From Clostridia bacterium (lineage in GTDB: Bacteria; Bacillota; Clostridia; Christensenellales; Borkfalkiaceae): 27,658 bases of DNA. The position numbers and the translations under genes are program-made. This document shows positions 6,387 to 21,186 of the stretch, piece after piece (positions within the stretch are counted from its first letter, which is position 1; each line of letters begins with the position of its first letter). The stretch covers positions 1 to 27,658 of the forward strand of contig JAFTHR010000116.1 of assembly GCA_017457345.1 (NCBI GenBank), read 5' to 3'. A model generated the notes under the pieces. That model was not told the origin of the DNA and ran no database searches. It saw only the letters and a list, made by a program, of their open reading frames with translations.

Positions 6387-7457
6387 ATGAACTATAAAAT
6401 TGGGCTTTTAAGAGGGGACGGAATCGGTCCTGAAATCGTGGATAGCGCCGTGCGCGTGCTTGAAAAAATCGGTGAAAAATACGGTCACAGTTTCTCGTTT
6501 ACGCCGTATCTTATCGGCGGCGCGGCAATCGATCAATGTGGCGAGCCGTTGCCGAAAGAAACGGTAGAAGGCTGCCTTGCATCCGATAGCGTGTTGCTTG
6601 GCGCTGTCGGCGGACCTAAATGGGACGGTTTATCGGGGGATAAACGCCCCGAAAAGGCGCTTCTTGGGATTCGTGCGGCAATGGGGCTTTTCACCAACTT
6701 GCGCCCTGCTAAATTATATCCTGCATTAAAAGCGGATTGTCCTTTGCGTGAAGATATCGTTGCGCAAGGGTTCGATATCGTTATCGTGCGGGAACTTACG
6801 GGCGGCATTTATTTCGGCGACCGCGGCTATCGCACGGGCAAGTACGGTGAAGAAGCGTTCGATACCGAAGCGTATAGCCGTATGGAAATTGAACGGATAG
6901 CGAAAGTGGCGTTTGAAACGGCGCGCAAGAGAAATAAAAAACTTACGAGCATTGATAAAGCAAACGTGCTCGAAACTTCTCGTCTTTGGAGAAAAATCGT
7001 GCACGAAATGGCGGCGGATTATCCCGACGTTTCTTGCAGCGATATGCTCGTGGACAACGCGGCAATGCAACTCGTTCGCAATCCCGCTCAATTCGACGTG
7101 ATCGTCACTTCGAATATGTTTGGGGATATCTTATCGGACGAAGCCTCTCAAATTACGGGCTCTATCGGTATGCTTCCTAGCGCTTCGCTTGGGGACAACA
7201 CGTGTGGGCTTTACGAGCCGATTCACGGTAGCGCGCCCGATATTGCAGGGCAAAACAAGGCGAACCCGATTGCAACCATTTTGTCGGCGGCTATGATGCT
7301 TTTGTACTCGTTCAACTTAGCAAAAGAATCGCAGGCGATTGTAGACGCGGTGGATAGAGTTTTGAACGATGGGTATAGAACGGCGGATTTGGCGCACGGT
7401 AAACCTAGCCTTTCAACGGTAGAAATGACCGATAAAATTATTGAATATCTGGATTGA
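6387..7457 (+). CDS. leuB: 3-isopropylmalate dehydrogenase
   Basis: [42 protein letters not shown] and [13 protein letters not shown]. Confidence 0.97.
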
Positions 7458-10395: not shown

Positions 10396-10683
10396 ATGAA
10401 GCAATTACAAACGGAAGAAGTGAAGGCGTTATTCGAGGCGATTTTATCCCTTGAAACGGTGGAGGAGTGCTACTCTTTCTTTGAGGACGCCTGCACGGTA
10501 AAAGAGATTTTAGACGTGGCGCAACGCTTAAAAGCGGCAAAGATGCTCAAAGAAGGAGAAAGCTATGCCACGGTTTGTAAAGAAACGGGGATGAGTTCGG
10601 CAACGGTTAGCCGTGTGAACCGTTGCTTAGAATATGGCAACGGCGGGTACGCGTTAGTGATTGATCGCGCGTGTAAGGAGTGA
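10396..10683 (+). CDS. hisR: YerC/YecD TrpR-like repressor, probable histidine repressor HisR
   Basis: LF.AILSL...EECY.FFED.CT..E...AQRL and G.SSAT.SRVNRCL.YG..GY; first gene of the his operon. Confidence 0.88.
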   Translation: MKQLQTEEVKALFEAILSLETVEECYSFFEDACTVKEILDVAQRLKAAKMLKEGESYATVCKETGMSSATVSRVNRCLEYGNGGYALVIDRACKE

Positions 10684-10687
10684 AAAA

Positions 10688-11782
10688 GTGGACGAACGTT
10701 TATTAAAAAATGAAGAAAAAGCGGTGTTCGCGTTGCGTGCACTCTACCAAAATTACGGATACTTGCCCTTTAAAATGAGCAAGTTTGAAGAATACGATTT
10801 ATACGCATACAACAAAGAGTTTTTGGTAAGCGACCGTGTAATCACTTTTACCGATACAGACGGGAAGTTGATGGCGCTCAAACCAGACGTCACTTTGTCC
10901 ATTGTAAAAAACACGCAAAGCGCAAAGGAAAAGCGCAAGGTTTTTTATAGCGAGAACGTGTATCGCGTGTCCGAGCGGACGAACCAGTTTAAGGAAATTA
11001 TGCAAACGGGTTTGGAATGTATCGGTGAGATCGGATTATACGACGTGTTCGAAGCAGTCTTGCTTGCGGCTAAGAGTTTAGACGTTATCAGTGAAGAGTT
11101 CGTTCTCAGCGTTGCCGATACCGTGCTCTTTGAAGCGGTACTTGAAGAAATCACGGCGGACAAAAAGGTAAAAAGCGCGCTTGCCGTGCTTTTAGCGGAT
11201 AGAAACCGTGACGATTTAGCAAGGGTGTGTTTCGAAAACGGGTTTACGAAAGAACAAACGGAAAAAGTAATGGTGCTTGCTAGCGCATACGGCGATGCGG
11301 AAAAAGTGTTAGCCGCGTTGAAAAGCGTTTGCGCGTCGGTTCAAGCCAAGGAAAAAATAGAAGAACTCAAAACGTTATTCGCGTTGCTCGGCGAAAGCGG
11401 ATTAGCAGGCAAGATTCGGTTAGATTTTTCGCTTGCAAGCAATTCGGCGTACTATAGCGGAACGGTGTTTAAAGGGTACGTAAAAGGGATTCCGGAAGCC
11501 GTTCTTTCGGGCGGTAGATACGATAGCCTGCTCAATCGAATGGGGAAAGCAGGCGGCGCGGTCGGCTTTGCCATTTACTTGGATTTGCTTGAACAATTAG
11601 AGCAAACGGCTAAGGCGTACGATATAGACTGCGTGGTATTATATAGCGATTCCACGCCTGCGCATAGTATTGTAAAGGCGGTGCAAGGATGCGTGGAAAA
11701 AGGGGAGCGTGTGCAAGCGCAAAAAGAGTTGCCTGCGCTTCGCTATAAAACGGTGATCGATTTGAGAGGGGAAAAGGCATGA
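10688..11782 (+). CDS. hisZ: ATP phosphoribosyltransferase regulatory subunit
   Basis: ALKPDVT, Q.GLE.IG, SGGRYD and VGFAIYLD (HisRS-like fold); precedes a short HisG. GTG 10688 behind AAGGAG. Confidence 0.93.
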   Translation: MDERLLKNEEKAVFALRALYQNYGYLPFKMSKFEEYDLYAYNKEFLVSDRVITFTDTDGKLMALKPDVTLSIVKNTQSAKEKRKVFYSENVYRVSERTNQFKEIMQTGLECIGEIGLYDVFEAVLLAAKSLDVISEEFVLSVADTVLFEAVLEEITADKKVKSALAVLLADRNRDDLARVCFENGFTKEQTEKVMVLASAYGDAEKVLAALKSVCASVQAKEKIEELKTLFALLGESGLAGKIRLDFSLASNSAYYSGTVFKGYVKGIPEAVLSGGRYDSLLNRMGKAGGAVGFAIYLDLLEQLEQTAKAYDIDCVVLYSDSTPAHSIVKAVQGCVEKGERVQAQKELPALRYKTVIDLRGEKA

Positions 11783-12414
11783 TAAATATAGCGTTGCCGA
11801 AAGGACGGCTTGGCGAAAAGGTGTACGACTTGTTTGAAAAAGCAGGTTATGATTGCCCGTCCATCAAAGAAAATAGCCGTAAATTGATTTTTGAAAATGC
11901 CGAAAAAGGCGTCCGCTTTTTTTGGGTAAAACCTTCGGACGTAGCCATCTACGTAGCACGCGGCGCTGCCGATTTGGGGGTAGCAGGGAAGGATATCTTG
12001 CTTGAATACCGCCCAGACGTGTACGAGTTGCTCGATTTACAAATGGGCAAATGCTCTATGGCGGTAGCAGCGAAAAAGGACTTTTACGACGATACCGAAA
12101 GAACGCTCAAAGTAGCCACGAAGTTCGTGCGTATCGCAAAGGAATACTATGCGAAAAAGGGAAGAGAAATCGACGTGATAGAGTTGCACGGTTCCATTGA
12201 ACTTGCGCCGATTTTGAACCTTTCAGACGTGATCGTGGATAGCGTGGAAACGGGCGCAACGCTCCGTGAAAACGATTTGGTGGTAGTGGAAAAGTTCTTG
12301 CCTATTTCGGCGCGTATGATAGCAAACAAAGCAAGTTTTTGTTTTAACACGGAAAAAGTAGAAGAAATCGTGAAAAAGATCGGAGAGATTTTGAAAAATG
12401 GTGAAAGTTTATAA
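11779..12414 (+). CDS. hisG: ATP phosphoribosyltransferase, short form
   Basis: IALPKGRL, DLGVAGKDILLE, VATKF and GSIELAPIL.L.DVIVD.VETGATL.EN.L; 211 aa; ATGA overlap with hisZ. Confidence 0.96.
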   Translation: MINIALPKGRLGEKVYDLFEKAGYDCPSIKENSRKLIFENAEKGVRFFWVKPSDVAIYVARGAADLGVAGKDILLEYRPDVYELLDLQMGKCSMAVAAKKDFYDDTERTLKVATKFVRIAKEYYAKKGREIDVIELHGSIELAPILNLSDVIVDSVETGATLRENDLVVVEKFLPISARMIANKASFCFNTEKVEEIVKKIGEILKNGESL

Positions 12415-13675
12415 GATGAACGAAGTGCCGAAAGAAGAGATTTTTGCCCGTGATAACGTGACGGGCAACGTATCGGCAATCGTGACAGACATCATTGAAA
12501 ACGTAAAAGCAAAAGGGGACGCCGCGCTCTACGAATACGCGGAAAAGTTCGACGGCGTGCGTTTGAACGCCCTTCGCGTGAGCGCAGAAGAAATAGAAGA
12601 AGCGTTCTCGCTCGTGGAAAAGCCGTTTATTGAAATCATTGAAAAGGCGGCGAAAAATATCCGCGCGTTCCACGAAAAACAGGTACGAGAAGGATTTTGC
12701 ATCAAGAAAGAAAACGGCGTGGTGACGGGGCAAAAAATCACCCCGATCGAAAAGGTGGGCTTGTACGTGCCCGGTGGTACGGCGGCGTATCCTTCCACGG
12801 TCCTTATGGATTCTATTCCTGCTAAAATTGCAGGTTGCAAACGAGTGGTAATGGTCACCCCCCCGAAAAAGGACGGTAAGGTAAACCCCGTTATTTTAGC
12901 GGCGGCAAAAATTGCAGGGATAGACGAGATTTATAAAGTGGGCGGCGCACAAGCCGTTGCCGCGCTCGCGTACGGCACGGAAAGCATTGCGAGCGTAGAT
13001 AAAATCGTAGGGCCCGGGAACGCCTTTGTTGCCGAAGCGAAAAAGCAAGTGTTCGGTAAGGTGGCGATTGATATGATTGCAGGGCCGAGCGAGATATTAA
13101 TCGTTGCGGACGGAACGTGCAACGCGGCGTACGTGGCGGCGGACTTGCTTTCGCAAGCCGAACACGATAAGAACGCAAGTGCCGTGCTCGTAACGGATAG
13201 CGAAGCGCTTGCGGCGGGCGTTGTGGAAGAATTAGAAAAGCAAATCCCGTTGTTGCCGCGCGCGGAAATTGCAAGAACTTCGATCGATAAAAACGGTAAA
13301 ATTATCGTGGTGAACGATTTAAACGAAGCGATTGCGGTGTCGAATGAAATTGCGCCCGAACACTTAGAGATTTGCGTGGATAACCCGTTCGAGTATTTAG
13401 AAAAGGTAGAAAACGCCGGCTCGGTATTCTTGGGCAAAAACTGCCCCGAAGCGCTCGGCGATTACTATGCCGGCCCGAACCACACCTTGCCTACGGGTGG
13501 TACGGCGCGTTTTTCCAACCCGCTTGGGGTAGACGATTTCGTGAAGAAAACGCAGTACACTTATTACACGAAGGAAGCGCTTTCACAAGTAGGCGCGGAA
13601 GTGGCGTATTTTGCGAATAAGGAGGGCTTGGACGCGCACGCAAGAAGCGTGACGATCCGTACGGAAGATGAGTAA
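12398..13675 (+). CDS. hisD: Histidinol dehydrogenase
   Basis: GLYVPGG.AAYPSTVLM, GPGNAFV, IDMIAGPSE, QAEHD, APEHLE and AGPNHTLPT. The start could alternatively be ATG 12416. Confidence 0.97.
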   Translation: MVKVYKMNEVPKEEIFARDNVTGNVSAIVTDIIENVKAKGDAALYEYAEKFDGVRLNALRVSAEEIEEAFSLVEKPFIEIIEKAAKNIRAFHEKQVREGFCIKKENGVVTGQKITPIEKVGLYVPGGTAAYPSTVLMDSIPAKIAGCKRVVMVTPPKKDGKVNPVILAAAKIAGIDEIYKVGGAQAVAALAYGTESIASVDKIVGPGNAFVAEAKKQVFGKVAIDMIAGPSEILIVADGTCNAAYVAADLLSQAEHDKNASAVLVTDSEALAAGVVEELEKQIPLLPRAEIARTSIDKNGKIIVVNDLNEAIAVSNEIAPEHLEICVDNPFEYLEKVENAGSVFLGKNCPEALGDYYAGPNHTLPTGGTARFSNPLGVDDFVKKTQYTYYTKEALSQVGAEVAYFANKEGLDAHARSVTIRTEDE

Positions 13676-14729
13676 GTTTTTTTCAAAAAAACACGGCGGG
13701 CTAGTGGCGTACACACCCGGCGAACAACCCAAAGATCGCGGCTACGTGAAACTGAACACGAACGAATCACCGTTTCCCCCTTCGCCATTTGTTTCGGCGG
13801 CGGTGCAAGCGGGCGCAAACGGATTGAACTTATACTGCGATCCTGAAAACACGCGGGTGAATACGGCGATTGCAAATTACTACGGCGTGCAAAAAAATCA
13901 GGTGATTACGGGCAACGGATCAGACGAGATTTTGAACTATGCCGTGTGCGCGTTTTGCGACGATACTTCACCGCTCGTGTTCGCCGATATCACCTACGGG
14001 TTCTATCCCGTATTTGCTAAAATCAACGCCGTTCCAACCAAGATAATCCCGTTAAAAGAAGACTTTTCTATCGACGTGGAAGCGTTTTGCGCGGAGCAGG
14101 GAACGGTTGTGATTGCGAACCCGAACGCCCCTACGGGGATTTGTTTGTCCCTTGAAACGATAGAAAAAATCGTGGCGGCGCACAAAAACAGCGTGGTGAT
14201 TATCGACGAAGCATACGTGGATTTCGGTGGCGAAAGCGCGGTAAAACTCGTGGAAAAATACGAGAACCTTTTAGTGGTGCAAACCTTTTCAAAGTCCCGC
14301 TCGTTAGCCGGCGGAAGATTAGGGTTTGGGATTGCAAACGAAAAAATTATTGCCGATTTAAACACGGTAAAATACTCGTTAAACCCCTACAACGTGAACA
14401 CGCTCACGCAACTTGCGGGAGAAGCGTCTATGCAGGATAAAGGGTATTTTGAAAAGAACGTTGCCACGGTGATAGCAAACCGCGAATATACGGTTGCAAA
14501 ACTTGAAGAAATGGGTTTTGAAGTATTGCCTTCGAAAGCGAACTTTGTGTTTGCAAGAAAGAGCGGGCTAGACGGGGGCGAGTGGTACGTTCGCTTAAAA
14601 GAAAAAGGGGTGCTCGTTCGCCATTTCACGAGCGAGCGGATTAAGGACTTTAACCGCGTGACGATCGGTACGAAAGAACAAATGGACGCTTTTTTGAAAG
14701 CGACGAAAGAAATCCTACAAGGAGAATAA
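13668..14729 (+). CDS. hisC: Histidinol-phosphate aminotransferase
   Basis: KLNTNESPFPPSP, GNGSDE, NPNAPTG, DEAYVDF and TFSKSRSLAG.RLG. Confidence 0.96.
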   Translation: MSKFFSKKHGGLVAYTPGEQPKDRGYVKLNTNESPFPPSPFVSAAVQAGANGLNLYCDPENTRVNTAIANYYGVQKNQVITGNGSDEILNYAVCAFCDDTSPLVFADITYGFYPVFAKINAVPTKIIPLKEDFSIDVEAFCAEQGTVVIANPNAPTGICLSLETIEKIVAAHKNSVVIIDEAYVDFGGESAVKLVEKYENLLVVQTFSKSRSLAGGRLGFGIANEKIIADLNTVKYSLNPYNVNTLTQLAGEASMQDKGYFEKNVATVIANREYTVAKLEEMGFEVLPSKANFVFARKSGLDGGEWYVRLKEKGVLVRHFTSERIKDFNRVTIGTKEQMDAFLKATKEILQGE

Positions 14730-14732
14730 AAA

Positions 14733-15323
14733 ATGAGAGAAAGTAGCATTGCAAGAAAAACGGCGGAAACGGATATCACCTTAACGCTTAATTTAGACGG
14801 ATCGGGCAATTCAAAGATTGAAACGGGTTGCGGCTTTTTAGACCACATGCTCACCCTTTTTTCCAAGCACGCGCACTACGATTTGAGCGTATGCTGCAAA
14901 GGGGACGTGGAAGTGGATTATCACCACACGGTAGAAGACGTTGCCATTTGCCTTGGTACGGCGTTTGCAAAGGCTTTGGGGGATAAAAAAGGCGTAAATC
15001 GCTACGGCGATAAAATTTTGCCGATGGACGAAGCGCTTATTTTATCGGCGGTAGATTTATCGGGAAGAGATTATTTGGGCTATGCGCTTGATATTCCTTC
15101 CTTTAAGGTGGGCGACTTTGATACCGAACTTTGCGAAGAATTCTTTAAAGCGTTCGTTCGCGAAGCGAAGATCACGTTGCATATTCGTCAACTTGCGGGA
15201 ACGAACTCCCACCACATTATTGAAGGCGCGTTCAAGTGCGTGGCGCGTGCGCTTGCGCAAGCCACGCAAATCAACGAAAAATTCGCGGCGGAAATTCCGT
15301 CTACTAAGGGTACGCTCGTATGA
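14733..15323 (+). CDS. hisB: Imidazoleglycerol-phosphate dehydratase
   Basis: R.T.ETDI, FLDHML, DYHHTVED, PMDEAL, NSHHIIE and PSTKG.L. Confidence 0.97.
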   Translation: MRESSIARKTAETDITLTLNLDGSGNSKIETGCGFLDHMLTLFSKHAHYDLSVCCKGDVEVDYHHTVEDVAICLGTAFAKALGDKKGVNRYGDKILPMDEALILSAVDLSGRDYLGYALDIPSFKVGDFDTELCEEFFKAFVREAKITLHIRQLAGTNSHHIIEGAFKCVARALAQATQINEKFAAEIPSTKGTLV

Positions 15324-15934
15324 TAGCAATCGTCGATTACGGCGTGGGCAATTTATTTTCGCTGAAATCGTCGTTTGAAGCGGTGGGCGCGGAAGTAGTG
15401 GTCACGGGAGAAAAATCGGTTATAGAATCGGCGGATAAAATCGTTTTGCCCGGCGTCGGCGCGTTTGCAGACGCCGCTCGTAAGTTGCGTGAAAGCGGGC
15501 TTGCGGAAACGGTAAAGGCGGAAGCGGCGAAAGGGAAACCGTTGCTTGGGATTTGCTTAGGGATGCAATTATTGTTTGAAGAGAGCCACGAATACGGCGT
15601 GCATCAAGGCTTAGGGCTTATCCAAGGCAAAGTCGTTTCTATGCAGGGCGTAATTCCACAAAACTTGCAAATTCCGCAAATCGGTTGGAACGCTTTAAAA
15701 TTCCACCAAGACCACCCTGTTTTAAAGTATATTAAAGAAGGGGATTGCGTGTATTTCGTGCATTCGTACTATGCAACCGAGTGCAATAAGGATTTGCTTT
15801 TGAGCGTGGAATACGGCGCGGAAATCACGGCGGCGGTTGTGCGCGGCAACGTGTTAGGGATGCAATTCCACCCCGAAAAGAGCGGCACGGTAGGGTTAAA
15901 CTTGTTGCGTGCGTTCGTGGAATGGGAGGCTTAA
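15320..15934 (+). CDS. hisH: Imidazole glycerol phosphate synthase glutaminase subunit
   Basis: DYGVGNL.S, LPGVGAF, GICLGMQ, YFVHSYY and QFHPEKS. Confidence 0.97.
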   Translation: MIAIVDYGVGNLFSLKSSFEAVGAEVVVTGEKSVIESADKIVLPGVGAFADAARKLRESGLAETVKAEAAKGKPLLGICLGMQLLFEESHEYGVHQGLGLIQGKVVSMQGVIPQNLQIPQIGWNALKFHQDHPVLKYIKEGDCVYFVHSYYATECNKDLLLSVEYGAEITAAVVRGNVLGMQFHPEKSGTVGLNLLRAFVEWEA

Positions 15935-15935
15935 A

Positions 15936-16649
15936 ATGAAAATTTTTCCTGCCATTGATTTATATCAAGGCAAAGCAGTCCGCTTGTATAAAGGGGACTA
16001 CGCTCAAATGACAATCTATTCCGAAGATCCCGTATCCGTTGCAAAAGAGTTCGAAAAAAAAGGCGCGGAGTACGTGCATCTTGTGGATTTAGAAGGCGCA
16101 AAATTCAACTCCACGCCCAACCGTAGCGTGGTGGAAAGGATCGCAAAAGAAACGAACTTGTTCGTGGAAATCGGCGGCGGTATTCGTGACGACGAGTGCG
16201 CGGCACGCTATTTCTCCTGCGGCGTAGACCGCGTGATTTTAGGCACGGCGGCGGTGACGGACGAAGCGTTTTTGCGCCGCGCCGTAAAGCAATACGGCGA
16301 AAAAATTGCCGTGGGCGCGGATATTAAGGACGGGTTTGTGGCAATCAAAGGCTGGCTGGAAAAATCGGCTTACGACGCCGATTCCTTCTTTGAAAAAATG
16401 CAACAAATCGGCGTGGATACCGTTATTTGTACCGACGTTTCAAAAGACGGCGCAATGAAGGGTGCAAACCACGCGTTATACGAAAGTCTTTCCAAAAAAT
16501 ATAGTGTGAAAATCGTAGCGTCCGGCGGGGTGTCTTCGATAGAAGATATCGTGCGGCTCAATGCGCTCGGCGTAGACGGTGCAATTATCGGCAAGGCGTA
16601 TTACACGGGTGATTTGGATTTGAGTGAGGCAATAGAAAAAGCAAGATGA
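15936..16649 (+). CDS. hisA: ProFAR isomerase
   Basis: PAIDL..GKAVRL..GD, HLVDLEGA, GGGIR, TD.SKDG and ASGGV. ATG 15936 behind GGGAGG. Confidence 0.96.
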   Translation: MKIFPAIDLYQGKAVRLYKGDYAQMTIYSEDPVSVAKEFEKKGAEYVHLVDLEGAKFNSTPNRSVVERIAKETNLFVEIGGGIRDDECAARYFSCGVDRVILGTAAVTDEAFLRRAVKQYGEKIAVGADIKDGFVAIKGWLEKSAYDADSFFEKMQQIGVDTVICTDVSKDGAMKGANHALYESLSKKYSVKIVASGGVSSIEDIVRLNALGVDGAIIGKAYYTGDLDLSEAIEKAR

Positions 16650-17404
16650 TTACCAAGAGAATAATTCCCTGCCTAGACGTAAAAGACGGGCAGGTAGTGA
16701 AAGGCGTGAATTTCGAAGGGGTGAAAACGGTTGCCGATCCCGAGCGTTTGGCAAAGTTCTATTCCGATTGTGGAGCAGACGAGTTGGTGTTTTACGACAT
16801 CACCGCAAGTTTCGAAAAACGCGCTCTGTTTACCGAGATTTTGAAAAAAGTGGCAAGCCGCATTTTTATTCCGTTAACGGTGGGCGGCGGCATCAATTCG
16901 CTAGAAGATTTCGATCGCGTTCTCAAATGCGGCGCGGATAAAGTGAGCGTGAATTCGGGTGCGATTCGCAATCCCGCGCTCGTTGGCGAAGCGGCGAAAA
17001 AATACGGCGATCAATGCGTGGTGTTATCGGTAGACGTAAAACGGGTAAACGGTGAATTCCGCGTGTTCTCGCACGGGGGGCGGATTGATACGGGTATGGA
17101 AGCGCTTTCTTGGATTCGGCGTTGCGTGGAAAACGGCGCGGGGGAAGTGGTAGTAAACTCCATTGATACCGACGGCGTAAAAAAAGGCTTCGATTTAGAA
17201 ATGCTCAAAGCCGTTTGCGAAATTGTGAAAGTGCCCGTAATTGCTTCGGGCGGGGCTGGTTGTCAAGAAGATTTTATAAAACTCTTCCAAGAAATCCCCG
17301 ATATTAGCGCGGGGCTTGCGGCGTCCGTATTCCATTTTGGAGAAATTGAGATTGCCGATTTAAAAGAAAATTTGCGCCAAAACGGCGTGATTGTGAGGTT
17401 GTGA
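16646..17404 (+). CDS. hisF: Imidazole glycerol phosphate synthase cyclase subunit
   Basis: [41 protein letters not shown] and IASGGAG. Confidence 0.97.
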
Positions 17405-17405
17405 T

Positions 17406-18056
17406 ATGTTGAAAATAGAAGAACTTAAATTCGACGAAAAAGGTTTAATTCCCGCCGTTGTAGTGGATTCTATCAGCGGGGAAGTATTAATGGTGGCATA
17501 TATGAACGCCGAGAGTTTAAAAGTCACTATGGAGAAGGGGCGTACTTGTTTTTATTCCCGTTCTAGAAAAGAGTTATGGCTCAAAGGAGAAACGAGTGGG
17601 AACTACCAAAACGTTGTGTCCATTACCGCCGATTGCGATAACGACGCGTTAGTGGTGGTAGTAGAAAAAGAAGGCCCTGCCTGACACACGGGAAAAGAGA
17701 GTTGCTTTTTCAACCCCGTATACCAAAGCGAAGAGAGAAACCGCTTTACGCTCAAAGGGTTATACGAACTCTTAGAAGATAGAAAGGCAACGAAGCCCGA
17801 AGGATCGTACACCACGTACCTGTTCGAAAAAGGGATTGATAAAATCCTGAAAAAGATTGGGGAAGAGAGCACGGAAGTGATTATCGGTGGGAAAGCGGGG
17901 GATAAAAAGGAAACGATTTACGAACTTGCCGACCTTGCATACCACGCAATGGTATTGATGGTGGAAATGGGCATTACGGTGGAAGACGTGCACAAAGAAC
18001 TTGCTTCTCGCCATATTATCGATCACAAGGTAAAACAAGAAAAAATGACGAAATAA
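17406..18056 (+). CDS. hisIE: Bifunctional phosphoribosyl-AMP cyclohydrolase / phosphoribosyl-ATP pyrophosphatase with an in-frame TGA at codon 93 (17682-84); a pseudogene if the TGA is real and not recoded
   Basis: The HisI part ([16 protein letters not shown]...DCDND...GPA) continues in frame after TGA as HTGKESCFF, then the HisE domain ([22 protein letters not shown]...E.ADLAYH), to TAA at 18054-56. Total 217 codons including the terminal stop. Confidence 0.93.
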
Positions 18057-18073
18057 GCGCGAAAAACGCAACG

Positions 18074-18105
18074 AAAAAACCGCTCCTGTATGGGAGCGGT
18101 TTTTT
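18074..18105. terminator. Bidirectional intrinsic terminator between hisIE and the MFS gene
   Basis: AAAAAA-CCGCTCC-TGTATG-GGAGCGG-TTTTTT, located between convergent genes. Confidence 0.92.
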
Positions 18106-18118
18106 ATCGTTTAAAAAA

Positions 18119-19438
18119 TTATTCTTCGCTTTGCGCGTTTTCCGTGGCAGGTTCTTCCGCAATCGTTTCTTCCTTTTGGAAAGTGGGGTGTTTTGCCGCG
18201 ATAATGAACATAACTAAGCCGGCAATCGTTAAAAGCGGAATGGGAATAAGTTCCAAGTTCATTACCGCCGAAACGGTAGTGGGCACGTTCGAGAAAATAA
18301 GGGTGAACGTGGAAACGAGTGCAGGGCCGAGCGTTGCAGCGCCTTTTGCGAAAATATCGTAAATGCCAAAGTATTCGCCCGATTTTTCGCTAGGGATAAT
18401 TCTCGTGAAGTAGGAACGGGACATGGCTTGAATACCGCCTTGGAACATACCTACCACAACGGCAAGAAGCCAGAATTGCCATTCGAACTTTAAGAAGAGT
18501 GCAAACAACGAAACGGCAACGTACCCGGAGATGCAAACAAGGATAAGCCACTTATCTTCGAATTTCTTGGAAAGTTTACCCATCAAGATTGCCGAAGGGA
18601 AAGCAACGATTTGCGTTAACAGAAGGGCAAGGAGCAATTGCGTGGTTTCAAAGTGAAGCATATCTTCGCCGTATACGGTTGCCATCTTAATAATGGTGGA
18701 CGTACCGTTGATATACAAGAAGAACGCAAGCAAGAAAAGGAACGCCTTTTTGTTTTGCTTAATTTCTTTAAAGATTTGACCAAGACGAGAAAACGTTTCT
18801 TTTACGGGGTGAGCGGGTTTGGGCAAATAGTGCTTTTGCTCGTAGCTTTTAAAGATAGGAAGGGTAAAGCAGAGCCACCAAGCCGCCGTAATAATAAACG
18901 CCGCGATCATACGCCATTTCATAGCGATCACTTCGTTGGGAACAACGAGCACGAGCAAAAGGCAAACAAGGAAAGGGATGCAACTACCGATATACCCCCA
19001 AGCATAACCGTTTGCGGAAACGTTATGCACTCTGTCGTCCGTCGTCACGTCCGTGAGCATAGAATCGTAGAATACGCACGAAGAAGATAAGCCCACTTCC
19101 GTTAAGATATAGAATATCAAGAAGATGATAGGCGTTAAAATGGGAAGGGACAAAATTGCGCAGCCGCAAATGCCGAGCAGAGCAAACCCAAAGAAGAATT
19201 TGCGCTTTCCGCTAAAATCTGCAAGCGTGCCGAAGATCGGGCAAATGAACAAAGCGATTAACGCAACGATCGAAGATGCGTACCCCCAAAGGGTGGTTGC
19301 CACGCCGTCTTGCCCTTGAACGAGCGAAGAAAAGTAAATGGGCAAAATGGTGGAAGCGAAAAGCACCCAAGCGGAGTTGCCTACGTCGTAAAGTACCCAT
19401 TTCTTTTCGAGTGAGGTAAGTTTGTTGGATTGACTCAT
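18119..19438 (-). CDS. MFS transporter, UMF1/Atg22-like family
   Basis: About 12 hydrophobic segments; W.LYD.GNSA, P..GTLADFSG.RK, FYDSML, S..GYAWGY.G, QAMSRSYF..IIP and GEYFG.Y motifs. Confidence 0.9.
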   Translation of the reverse strand: MSQSNKLTSLEKKWVLYDVGNSAWVLFASTILPIYFSSLVQGQDGVATTLWGYASSIVALIALFICPIFGTLADFSGKRKFFFGFALLGICGCAILSLPILTPIIFLIFYILTEVGLSSSCVFYDSMLTDVTTDDRVHNVSANGYAWGYIGSCIPFLVCLLLVLVVPNEVIAMKWRMIAAFIITAAWWLCFTLPIFKSYEQKHYLPKPAHPVKETFSRLGQIFKEIKQNKKAFLFLLAFFLYINGTSTIIKMATVYGEDMLHFETTQLLLALLLTQIVAFPSAILMGKLSKKFEDKWLILVCISGYVAVSLFALFLKFEWQFWLLAVVVGMFQGGIQAMSRSYFTRIIPSEKSGEYFGIYDIFAKGAATLGPALVSTFTLIFSNVPTTVSAVMNLELIPIPLLTIAGLVMFIIAAKHPTFQKEETIAEEPATENAQSEE

Positions 19439-20250
19439 AATTTATCCCCCGTAAAGTCTTTATTGAAGATTTTATTCATCTCGCCGTTTTCAGCGATTTG
19501 GTTAAGGTTTTCAAAATACTCTTGTACGAGTGCGGCAGTTGGTTCAACTGCGTTTTTCATATTTTGTGCAAGCACCACGTTGCATTCGCTGCAACGAGGA
19601 TCGTCCTTTTTATGCAAGAACATATCGCCGAACTTGCGGTCCATTTTTGCAATTTTAAGAACTAAGTGCGCCAAGCCGTGGAACAGATAACTGCGGCTCA
19701 CGAACATACCGTTAATGGTGCGAATCGTTTTGATAGCGCTTTTTAAAACGTCTTCCGATTCGTTTAATAAAAGGGCGGCGGCAGAAGCCGTTCCGTTTTC
19801 GCTGTTTAAGTGTTTCGCGGGGTTGTATCCTGCAATTTTCAATCCGTTTTCACGGAGCAGGTATTTATCGAACTCCGATTCAATTTTTCCGTGGGATACG
19901 CCCGTGTCTTCTAATTTATAAATATCGCCATGGCAAGCGTCGTCTAAACCGAAATGGCAAATAAAACCTGCGGCGTATGCACCTGCCGCCGTTTCAAGCG
20001 GATCTTCGTTTTGCGCTACGAGCGTTTTTGCCGTGGGCAAAAAGAAGTTTTTCGCGGGAGCAAAGTGCATATCCAACCCCTTTTTGCGGTTGGAGTTTTT
20101 GGAGAGCGGCTTATAGTAAAATAAGATATCCGGACCGTGTAAGCCGAGATAAAAAGCCGTTTTATGTTTTTCAATTTTTTCTTGCATTTGCGCGGGCAAT
20201 TTCTCGAATACGAGTTCACCGAAACGCTTATGCGCGTAAGTAGAGGGCAT
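19435..20250 (-). CDS. Zinc-dependent phospholipase C family protein, no signal peptide evident
   Basis: N-terminal MP..YAH, G..GPDILFYY, GFICHF.LD..CH and H..IE..FD metal-ligand pattern. AGGAGG RBS; 4 nt overlap with the MFS gene. Confidence 0.8.
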   Translation of the reverse strand: MPSTYAHKRFGELVFEKLPAQMQEKIEKHKTAFYLGLHGPDILFYYKPLSKNSNRKKGLDMHFAPAKNFFLPTAKTLVAQNEDPLETAAGAYAAGFICHFGLDDACHGDIYKLEDTGVSHGKIESEFDKYLLRENGLKIAGYNPAKHLNSENGTASAAALLLNESEDVLKSAIKTIRTINGMFVSRSYLFHGLAHLVLKIAKMDRKFGDMFLHKKDDPRCSECNVVLAQNMKNAVEPTAALVQEYFENLNQIAENGEMNKIFNKDFTGDKL

Positions 20251-20274
20251 AACCGTACCTCCTGTTCTTTTTTA

Positions 20275-20302
20275 ATTATAACACATTTTCCGAAAAAAGC
20301 AA
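20275..20302 (-). promoter_or_regulatory. SigA promoter for the phospholipase-MFS pair
   Basis: On the minus strand: TTGCTT, 16 nt spacer, TATAAT, with a TG extension one base upstream of the -10. Confidence 0.7.
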
Positions 20303-20361
20303 TGAAATGAACGTTAAAAACTTAAAAAACCCCGTTCGCGTGCGTCAAAAACGCCGAAAAA

Positions 20362-20391
20362 GCATAAAAATCTTGCAGTTGCGAATACTTT
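20362..20391 (+). promoter_or_regulatory. Possible weak SigE-like promoter for the two hypothetical genes
   Basis: GCATAAA-N15-AATACTTT resembles the SigE consensus (KCATATT-N14/15-CATACAWT) with mismatches. Confidence 0.3.
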
Positions 20392-20415
20392 TTTGGAGAA
20401 TACGGGGGGCGAAAG

Positions 20416-20814
20416 ATGGAAGAAAAACTCCTTTGCTTAATGAAAACGATAGAAAAACGCTGCGGCGAAGGGGAATATCACGTGTTCGCAGACGACGATT
20501 TTTTAGAGTGTTTTTGTTGCGACGGGGAAGAAAACACCCCGCAAAAAGAAGAACTATCTTCGCTCATTCATATCCTTGCCGAGCGCGGTTTTATAGGCGT
20601 CAAATACGCGCGCGAAGGGATGTATTGTTTATGCGCGCGCTCGGCGCTCAAAGAGTTTTTTGAAACAAAAAAGCGGGAAGAAGTTCGGGAGACGGAGCGG
20701 TTGCTTCGTGAAACCGATTTGCAAAAAAAGGAGTTCCTTGTGGCGTTTGCAGGGGGCGCGGCTGGCGCAGCGGCGGCAACGGTAGTATTGCGGCTGTTGG
20801 CGCTTTTGTTTTAA
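20416..20814 (+). CDS. Hypothetical protein, winged-helix-like segment plus C-terminal transmembrane helix
   Basis: 132 aa ORF after a GGGGGG RBS; segment EELSSLIHILAERGFI and hydrophobic tail FLVAFAGGAAGAAAATVVLRLLALLF. Confidence 0.7.
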   Translation: MEEKLLCLMKTIEKRCGEGEYHVFADDDFLECFCCDGEENTPQKEELSSLIHILAERGFIGVKYAREGMYCLCARSALKEFFETKKREEVRETERLLRETDLQKKEFLVAFAGGAAGAAAATVVLRLLALLF

Positions 20815-20826
20815 GGCGGGTAGGAT

Positions 20827-21186
20827 ATGCTGAGTAAAACGGAAAACGAAGTAATGTGCGTGGTATACAAACTTTGCGCGGGTGAAGGCAGGTGTTTAAT
20901 TCCGCCAAAAGAAGTGCTTTCGCATTTTTCACGCAAACAAAAACCGCTCACGGAAGAAAAGTTGGAACGCGTTTTGCGTGCGCTGGAATTAGACGGGTAT
21001 TTTGAACTACTCTCTTCCGACCGAAAGGGGGAAAAGATGTACGTAATCACTCTGCGTGCAAAAGGGTACGCTTTCCGCCGTTTATACGAGCAAGAAAAAC
21101 GCCGCTTTTTTCTCAAACTCGGTTGGGCGGTTGCCTCGGCGGCGATTGCCTTTTTCGTGGGGATGTTGCTCAGCGCCCTTTTTTAA
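20827..21186 (+). CDS. Hypothetical protein, winged-helix-like segment plus C-terminal transmembrane helix
   Basis: 119 aa ORF 12 nt after the previous gene; segment EKLERVLRALELDGYF and hydrophobic tail LGWAVASAAIAFFVGMLLSALF. Confidence 0.75.
   Translation: MLSKTENEVMCVVYKLCAGEGRCLIPPKEVLSHFSRKQKPLTEEKLERVLRALELDGYFELLSSDRKGEKMYVITLRAKGYAFRRLYEQEKRRFFLKLGWAVASAAIAFFVGMLLSALF

Follow-up and report, generated by a model that had tools for sequence, protein, structure and literature searches.

An in-frame TGA at a zinc-ligand cysteine codon of hisIE in a Clostridia MAG: apparently an ordinary, unrecoded stop of artefactual or very recent origin

The window, i.e., the whole stretch of 27,658 nucleotides analysed here, is contig C91 of a Clostridia MAG that comprises 1.28 Mb in 266 contigs and is 81.6% complete. 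It carries a his operon of the organization hisZGDCBHAF-IE on the forward strand, in which hisZ, hisG, hisD, hisC, hisB, hisH, hisA, and hisF occupy positions 10661 to 17404 and are all open (according to the list of open reading frames and to Pfam searches with the genes called on identical contigs). The last gene of the operon, hisIE (17406 to 18056, forward strand), codes for a bifunctional PR-AMP cyclohydrolase / PR-ATP pyrophosphohydrolase and is broken at codon 93. It is followed by a terminator-like hairpin with a T-run (18080 to 18105, forward strand). The operon is headed by a TrpR/YerC-like gene of 95 aa (Pfam Trp_repressor), which is situated upstream of hisZ at about 10396 to 10683 of the window.

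The frame of hisIE begins with ATG at 17406 and runs over 92 codons to a TGA at 17682 to 17684; beyond it, 123 codons are open up to the TAA at 18054 to 18056, such that the read-through product has 216 aa. Both Pfam domains are present, complete, and colinear on this product, with PRA-CH (PF01502) at residues 29 to 102 (121.5 bits) and PRA-PH (PF01503) at residues 117 to 203 (85.6 bits). Its best structural relative is the HisIE structure 6J2L (E 4.6e-48), and the alignment with it places a Cys-His pair at codons 93 and 94. Concerning the zinc site, the cyclohydrolase domain of MtHISN2 possesses Cys126, Cys142, and Cys149 together with the general-base His143 (PMC8102479), and the spacings of 16, 1, and 6 between C77, codon 93, H94, and C100 of the window gene are those of the MtHISN2 site (PMC8102479). 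The codon of the first zinc ligand, Cys77 (TGC, 17634 to 17636, forward strand), is intact and spaced like that of Cys126, whereas the TGA (17682 to 17684, forward strand) takes the place of the second zinc-ligand cysteine. The codons of the general base His94 (CAC, 17685 to 17687) and of the third ligand Cys100 (TGC, 17703 to 17705), both on the forward strand, lie downstream of the stop, so that His94 would be untranslated. The initial annotation had described the in-frame TGA with its open continuation, its location at a zinc-ligand cysteine of the HisI motif, and the complete HisE domain behind it, and on all of these points it is borne out.

In its two-domain architecture, the window gene equals the bifunctional HisIE of Shigella flexneri (6J2L) and the plant HISN2 (7BGM), whose metal-binding and catalytic residues are colinear with C77, position 93, H94, C100, and the acidic residues of the HisE half. 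The difference is that codon 93 is TGA here and Cys there, whereas scaffold_3778, a near-identical assembly treated below, encodes a normal protein: the site of three cysteines and the general-base histidine is broken in the window and whole in that sister. Of the three zinc ligands, the truncated product of 92 aa retains only Cys77, and both His94 and the entire HisE domain are missing from it. Re-initiation yielding a separate HisE is ruled out, as the earliest in-frame start past the TGA, a GTG at 17877, sits inside the PRA-PH domain. Clustered at 90% identity, each of the two hisIE products stands alone.

Elsewhere in the MAG (contig C247, 9751 to 10383), a HisIE-like paralogue of 211 aa is encoded that shares 35% identity with HisIE. 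Its PRA-PH domain is good (77 bits), whereas its PRA-CH domain is degenerate (24.4 bits, under the cut-off) and without the zinc-ligand Cys-His-Cys residues, including the catalytic His; as a back-up HisI it is therefore ruled out. It may be a stand-alone pyrophosphohydrolase of HisE or MazG type with a remnant N-terminal domain. A second, similarly distant HisIE-like match (31-42% identical) is also found in most of the genus genomes searched.

Among orthologues, the column of codon 93 is uniform. It holds TGC or TGT in each of 30 orthologues found in relatives within the genus and the order, and Cys in all 80 further orthologues (52 TGC and 28 TGT, with zero internal stops), which are 73-84% identical and stem from named MAGs of Oscillospirales-type Clostridia of ruminant and other guts. 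A TGA is thus found in none of the 110 orthologues examined, and the recurrence in independent lineages for which the initial annotation had suggested looking does not appear; the TGA occurs in just two assemblies, both of one strain, namely the MAG and contig k141_117537 of ENA ERZ27256821. Two other assemblies of this strain that are more than 99.9% identical to the window have TGC. By look-up of the exact protein, scaffold_3778 of ENA ERZ28653984 (25.4 kb) was found to encode the full HisIE of 216 aa with Cys93; across 10598 to 21095, 5 bases set it apart from the window, and the sequence 3' of codon 93 is unchanged. Two Logan contigs of run SRR12529369 show one mismatch each to the window, the one covering 16242 to 17692 with C at 17684 and the other, covering 10896 to 12772, at 12242, and both mismatches are to the ancestral base. 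Logan contigs are built conservatively from k-mers. In the run that covers the window best, 0.96 of the window's sampled words are present, the k-mer depth being only about 5-6; the SRR12529369 contig with C at 17684 was matched to this run by its length, its end point, and its single mismatch. The depth in the bin of the site is fully explained there by the C-bearing contig and the next one, so that no contig with the A allele is present in this run. Contigs of three other runs break at 17660, 17685, and 17694, and none of them spans 17682 to 17684. A search of runs with 61 nt around the TGA, represented by 2 sampled words, listed no run. With TGC in the near-identical assemblies and TGC or TGT in the relatives, the base at 17684 is derived, and judging from these alignments the TGA is evidently a single C-to-A change (TGC to TGA) on a background of more than 99.9% identity.

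Variation among the assemblies of the strain was followed by comparison of the window, k141_117537, scaffold_3778, and the SRR12529369 Logan contigs across a stretch of the his operon of up to 10.5 kb, with ancestry taken from relatives. Seven SNPs and one deletion of 39 nt were found. Transversions account for six of the SNPs and belong for the most part to the G/T or C/A class; the lone transition is the only synonymous change. At 14237, the window has C, and k141_117537 and scaffold_3778 have T (outside the Logan coverage). Private to the window is a derived G at 12242 (forward strand; T in the three others), which changes the conserved hydrophobic residue 155 in the PRPP-binding motif of HisG from Ile to Ser (I155S). 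Of 11 relatives, 10 have Ile in this column and one has Leu; Ser is found in the window only, and an exact look-up of the window HisG with Ser155 returned no other record. Private to k141_117537 are T at 12905 (G in the window and scaffold_3778), which causes A170S at an invariant Ala of HisD, and C at 12927 (A in the window and scaffold_3778), which causes E177A in a HisD column that is variable in relatives; both sites are outside the Logan coverage. These two hisD changes are transversions situated 22 nt apart. Private to scaffold_3778 is T at 14508 (G in the window and k141_117537, outside the Logan coverage), a nonsense change in hisC (GAA to TAA, E281 to stop) that leaves products of 268 and 72 aa, as well as T at 18057, where the window, k141_117537, and the Logan sequence have G. 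At 17684, the window and k141_117537 have A, and scaffold_3778 and the Logan contig have C. The stretch of 39 nt at the terminator is present in the window, k141_117537, and the Logan sequence and deleted in scaffold_3778; the deletion (window about 18080 to 18112) is flanked by an A-run of 6 nt and takes out the terminator hairpin of hisIE. Hence each of the three long assemblies exhibits private changes of its own, mostly radical or damaging and of transversion type, and the window and k141_117537 differ at four sites, all of them other than 17684. Taken at face value, such a private, transversion-rich set of changes would hardly be a selected natural spectrum.

Stops inside genes were also surveyed throughout the MAG, by a crude screen of coding potential for stops flanked by coding sequence, followed by Pfam checks. 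They are rare: four in-frame stops with a good coding signal on either side were confirmed, including that of hisIE. Only one other is a TGA, in a DUF4838 gene (contig C77, 1195 to 1197) whose homologues (28-37% identical) read through the position; the column is variable among them, with S, A, V, or Q. The third is a TAG in the N-terminal domain of PEPCK (contig C95, 2608 to 2613), the corresponding codon of nine genus relatives being AAG (Lys). The adjoining codon is altered as well (AGA to ATA), and with two changes in the space of five bases the consensus would seem to have incorporated a low-quality stretch; an exact look-up of the TAG-truncated PEPCK product found no other record. The fourth is a TAA in a pyruvate-formate-lyase-like gene (contig C258, 2021 to 2023), again by C-to-A, at a codon that is TAC (Tyr) in nine relatives. 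The stop-bearing conserved genes are 87-94% identical to those of genus relatives, and two of them are genes of central metabolism. The occurrence of all three kinds of stop in highly conserved genes speaks against a decoding specific to UGA, and the stops in genes point to sporadic, unselected base changes in the MAG assembly.

The location of the TGA had led the initial annotation to propose recoding as selenocysteine or cysteine, and there is a genuine likeness to selenoprotein genes with an intragenic SECIS, such as E. coli fdhF with its UGA140, in that a UGA at a conserved Cys, here exactly a metal ligand, is followed by a hairpin just 3' of it. In hisIE, this hairpin (17688 to 17719, forward strand) begins 3 nt past the TGA and is weak, the 69-nt fold 3' of the TGA having -13.9 kcal/mol and a z of -2.1, with 7 of 200 shuffles folding equally well. 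Since scaffold_3778 has TGC and yet an identical sequence after it, the hairpin is older than the TGA and is not UGA-specific; it is an incidental structure of the coding sequence and no SECIS. Further differences from the fdhF type concern the lack of recurrence of the TGA in orthologues and the decoding machinery. SelA and SelD have no match in the MAG, 81.6% complete as it is, nor in the 60 other genomes of the genus (each 0 of 61, of which 15 are at least 90% complete); the best match to the SelB model in the MAG reaches 108 bits against a cut-off of 242, the matches being ordinary translation GTPases; and the best Rfam match to tRNA-Sec in the MAG, at 41.7, stays below the gathering score of 47, with none reported by ARAGORN. 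A selenocysteine at UGA93, by which HisIE would become a new selenoprotein with a Sec zinc ligand, is therefore extremely improbable, and as far as sequence analysis reaches this reading is already refuted. UGA followed by C, as at codon 93, is a weak termination context in E. coli, and a real UGA93 allele might be partly read through by near-cognate tRNA-Cys or tRNA-Trp in this leaky context, or by a suppressor tRNA, and so yield some active enzyme. A tRNA with UCA anticodon was not found by ARAGORN among the 16 tRNA genes recovered, although such a suppressor could lie in the missing part of the genome, where most of its tRNA genes are; the recovered tRNA-Trp has the usual CCA anticodon. Moreover, long open reading frames of the MAG regularly end with TGA, Trp as a zinc ligand would not restore the site, such that only rare insertion of Cys would be useful, and the conserved surroundings are all present in the TGC haplotype too. 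Readthrough is accordingly rated very unlikely. Genome-wide reassignment of UGA to a sense codon could draw on the two in-gene TGAs in hisIE and the DUF4838 gene, and on nothing beyond these two; against it, TGA is the true terminator of five genes of the window (with ends at 7457 and 11782, and hisB, hisA, and hisF) and ends 76 of 583 long coding open reading frames of the MAG (13%), in-gene TAG and TAA occur besides, and of seven further TGA junctions checked with Pfam only that of DUF4838 has a domain reading across, whereas six are without a domain across the TGA (one of these without any Pfam match). The probability of reassignment is practically nil; it is already refuted, in agreement with the initial annotation, which had excluded it because TGA acts as a genuine stop elsewhere in the window. 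Jointly, selenocysteine, readthrough or a suppressor tRNA, and reassignment of the code are quite unlikely. As a special case, a real A allele might persist in the population because weak termination at UGA-C lets an occasional Cys be inserted at codon 93, or a Sec if the required machinery is encoded in the fifth of the genome that is unassembled; the strain would then retain a trickle of HisI activity. This is highly improbable. The recoding proposal is thus unsupported: none of selA, selB, selC, selD, or a UCA tRNA was found over threshold in the MAG, and the observations named in the initial annotation as speaking against recoding (TGC in near-identical assemblies, Cys in the relatives, and machinery not found) were all made. 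Its null, an error or mutation for which one substitution is enough, is the reading that the evidence bears out.

The base at 17684 is hence derived, nearly private, not conserved, and without decoding machinery, and the TGA in hisIE is accordingly regarded as an ordinary, unrecoded stop, being either an artefact of sequencing or an allele broken very recently. Between these two we tentatively favour an artefact, in which the single C-to-A change would have entered the low-coverage MAG as a consensus error or through DNA damage, while the organism would have a normal HisIE with Cys93 and normal synthesis of histidine. The MAG resembles known low-coverage MAG errors, including the G-to-T / C-to-A artefacts of oxidative library damage, in its k-mer depth of about 5-6, its 266 contigs, the private, transversion-rich changes of each assembly, and the presence of all three kinds of stop in conserved genes. 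The same origin is suggested by the ancestral bases that the Logan contigs of the best-covering run show at both 17684 and 12242, by the intact HisIE of the otherwise closely matching scaffold_3778, by the second private change I155S in HisG being likewise derived and radical, and by the open state of the remaining eight his genes. A MutY-deficient mutator as source of the G/T-class changes is ruled out, MutY being present and intact in the MAG, so that there is no sign of one; Fpg was not found in the incomplete genome. The likeness to such errors has its limit in the A allele being found in two assemblies and in the window having been compared with assembled contigs: the A is common to the window and k141_117537 although their consensus choices differ at four other sites, and this is fitted at least as well by a real variant contained in several reads or in two samples. 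The TGA could accordingly be a real, very recent nonsense allele of the strain or a subpopulation, a possibility to be taken seriously even though we hold it to fall somewhat short of even. If the base is real, the ribosome would halt at codon 93, HisI activity would be lost, and external histidine from the gut would be needed, given the residues missing from the product, the lack of HisE re-initiation, and the inability of the sole other HisIE-like gene (on C247), with its degenerate cyclohydrolase half, to replace HisI. Very young bacterial polymorphism is expected to hold missense and nonsense changes that have not yet been purged; the hisC nonsense of scaffold_3778 would fit a relaxed need for histidine synthesis in the animal gut, and some of the genus genomes searched are without a match to hisIE or hisG. 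On the other hand, with the rest of the operon intact the loss would have to be extremely recent, the transversion-rich, selection-free spectrum and the stops in PEPCK and the pyruvate-formate-lyase-like gene resemble error more than biology, and the best-covering run is ancestral at both sites in question. Selection for loss of the his operon, as might be read from different his nonsense codons in two sister haplotypes, was rejected, since 2 nonsense changes among 6 coding SNPs are no significant excess (own estimate, p about 0.1).

The hisIE TGA, which we continue to regard as somewhat more probably an artefact than a true mutation, may serve as a negative control: a UGA at a metal-ligand cysteine, the classic selenoprotein signature, is insufficient alone, and one wrong or freshly mutated base in a low-coverage MAG mimics it. 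The tests that separate such cases are comparison with near-identical sister assemblies, a census of the orthologue column, a genus-wide search for Sec genes, and a genome-wide census of in-gene stops. Several nonsense and radical substitutions are present in this MAG, which is the species representative; the affected genes would be annotated as pseudogenes, and metabolic reconstructions from it could mistake the organism for a histidine auxotroph or for one that has lost PEPCK or PFL.
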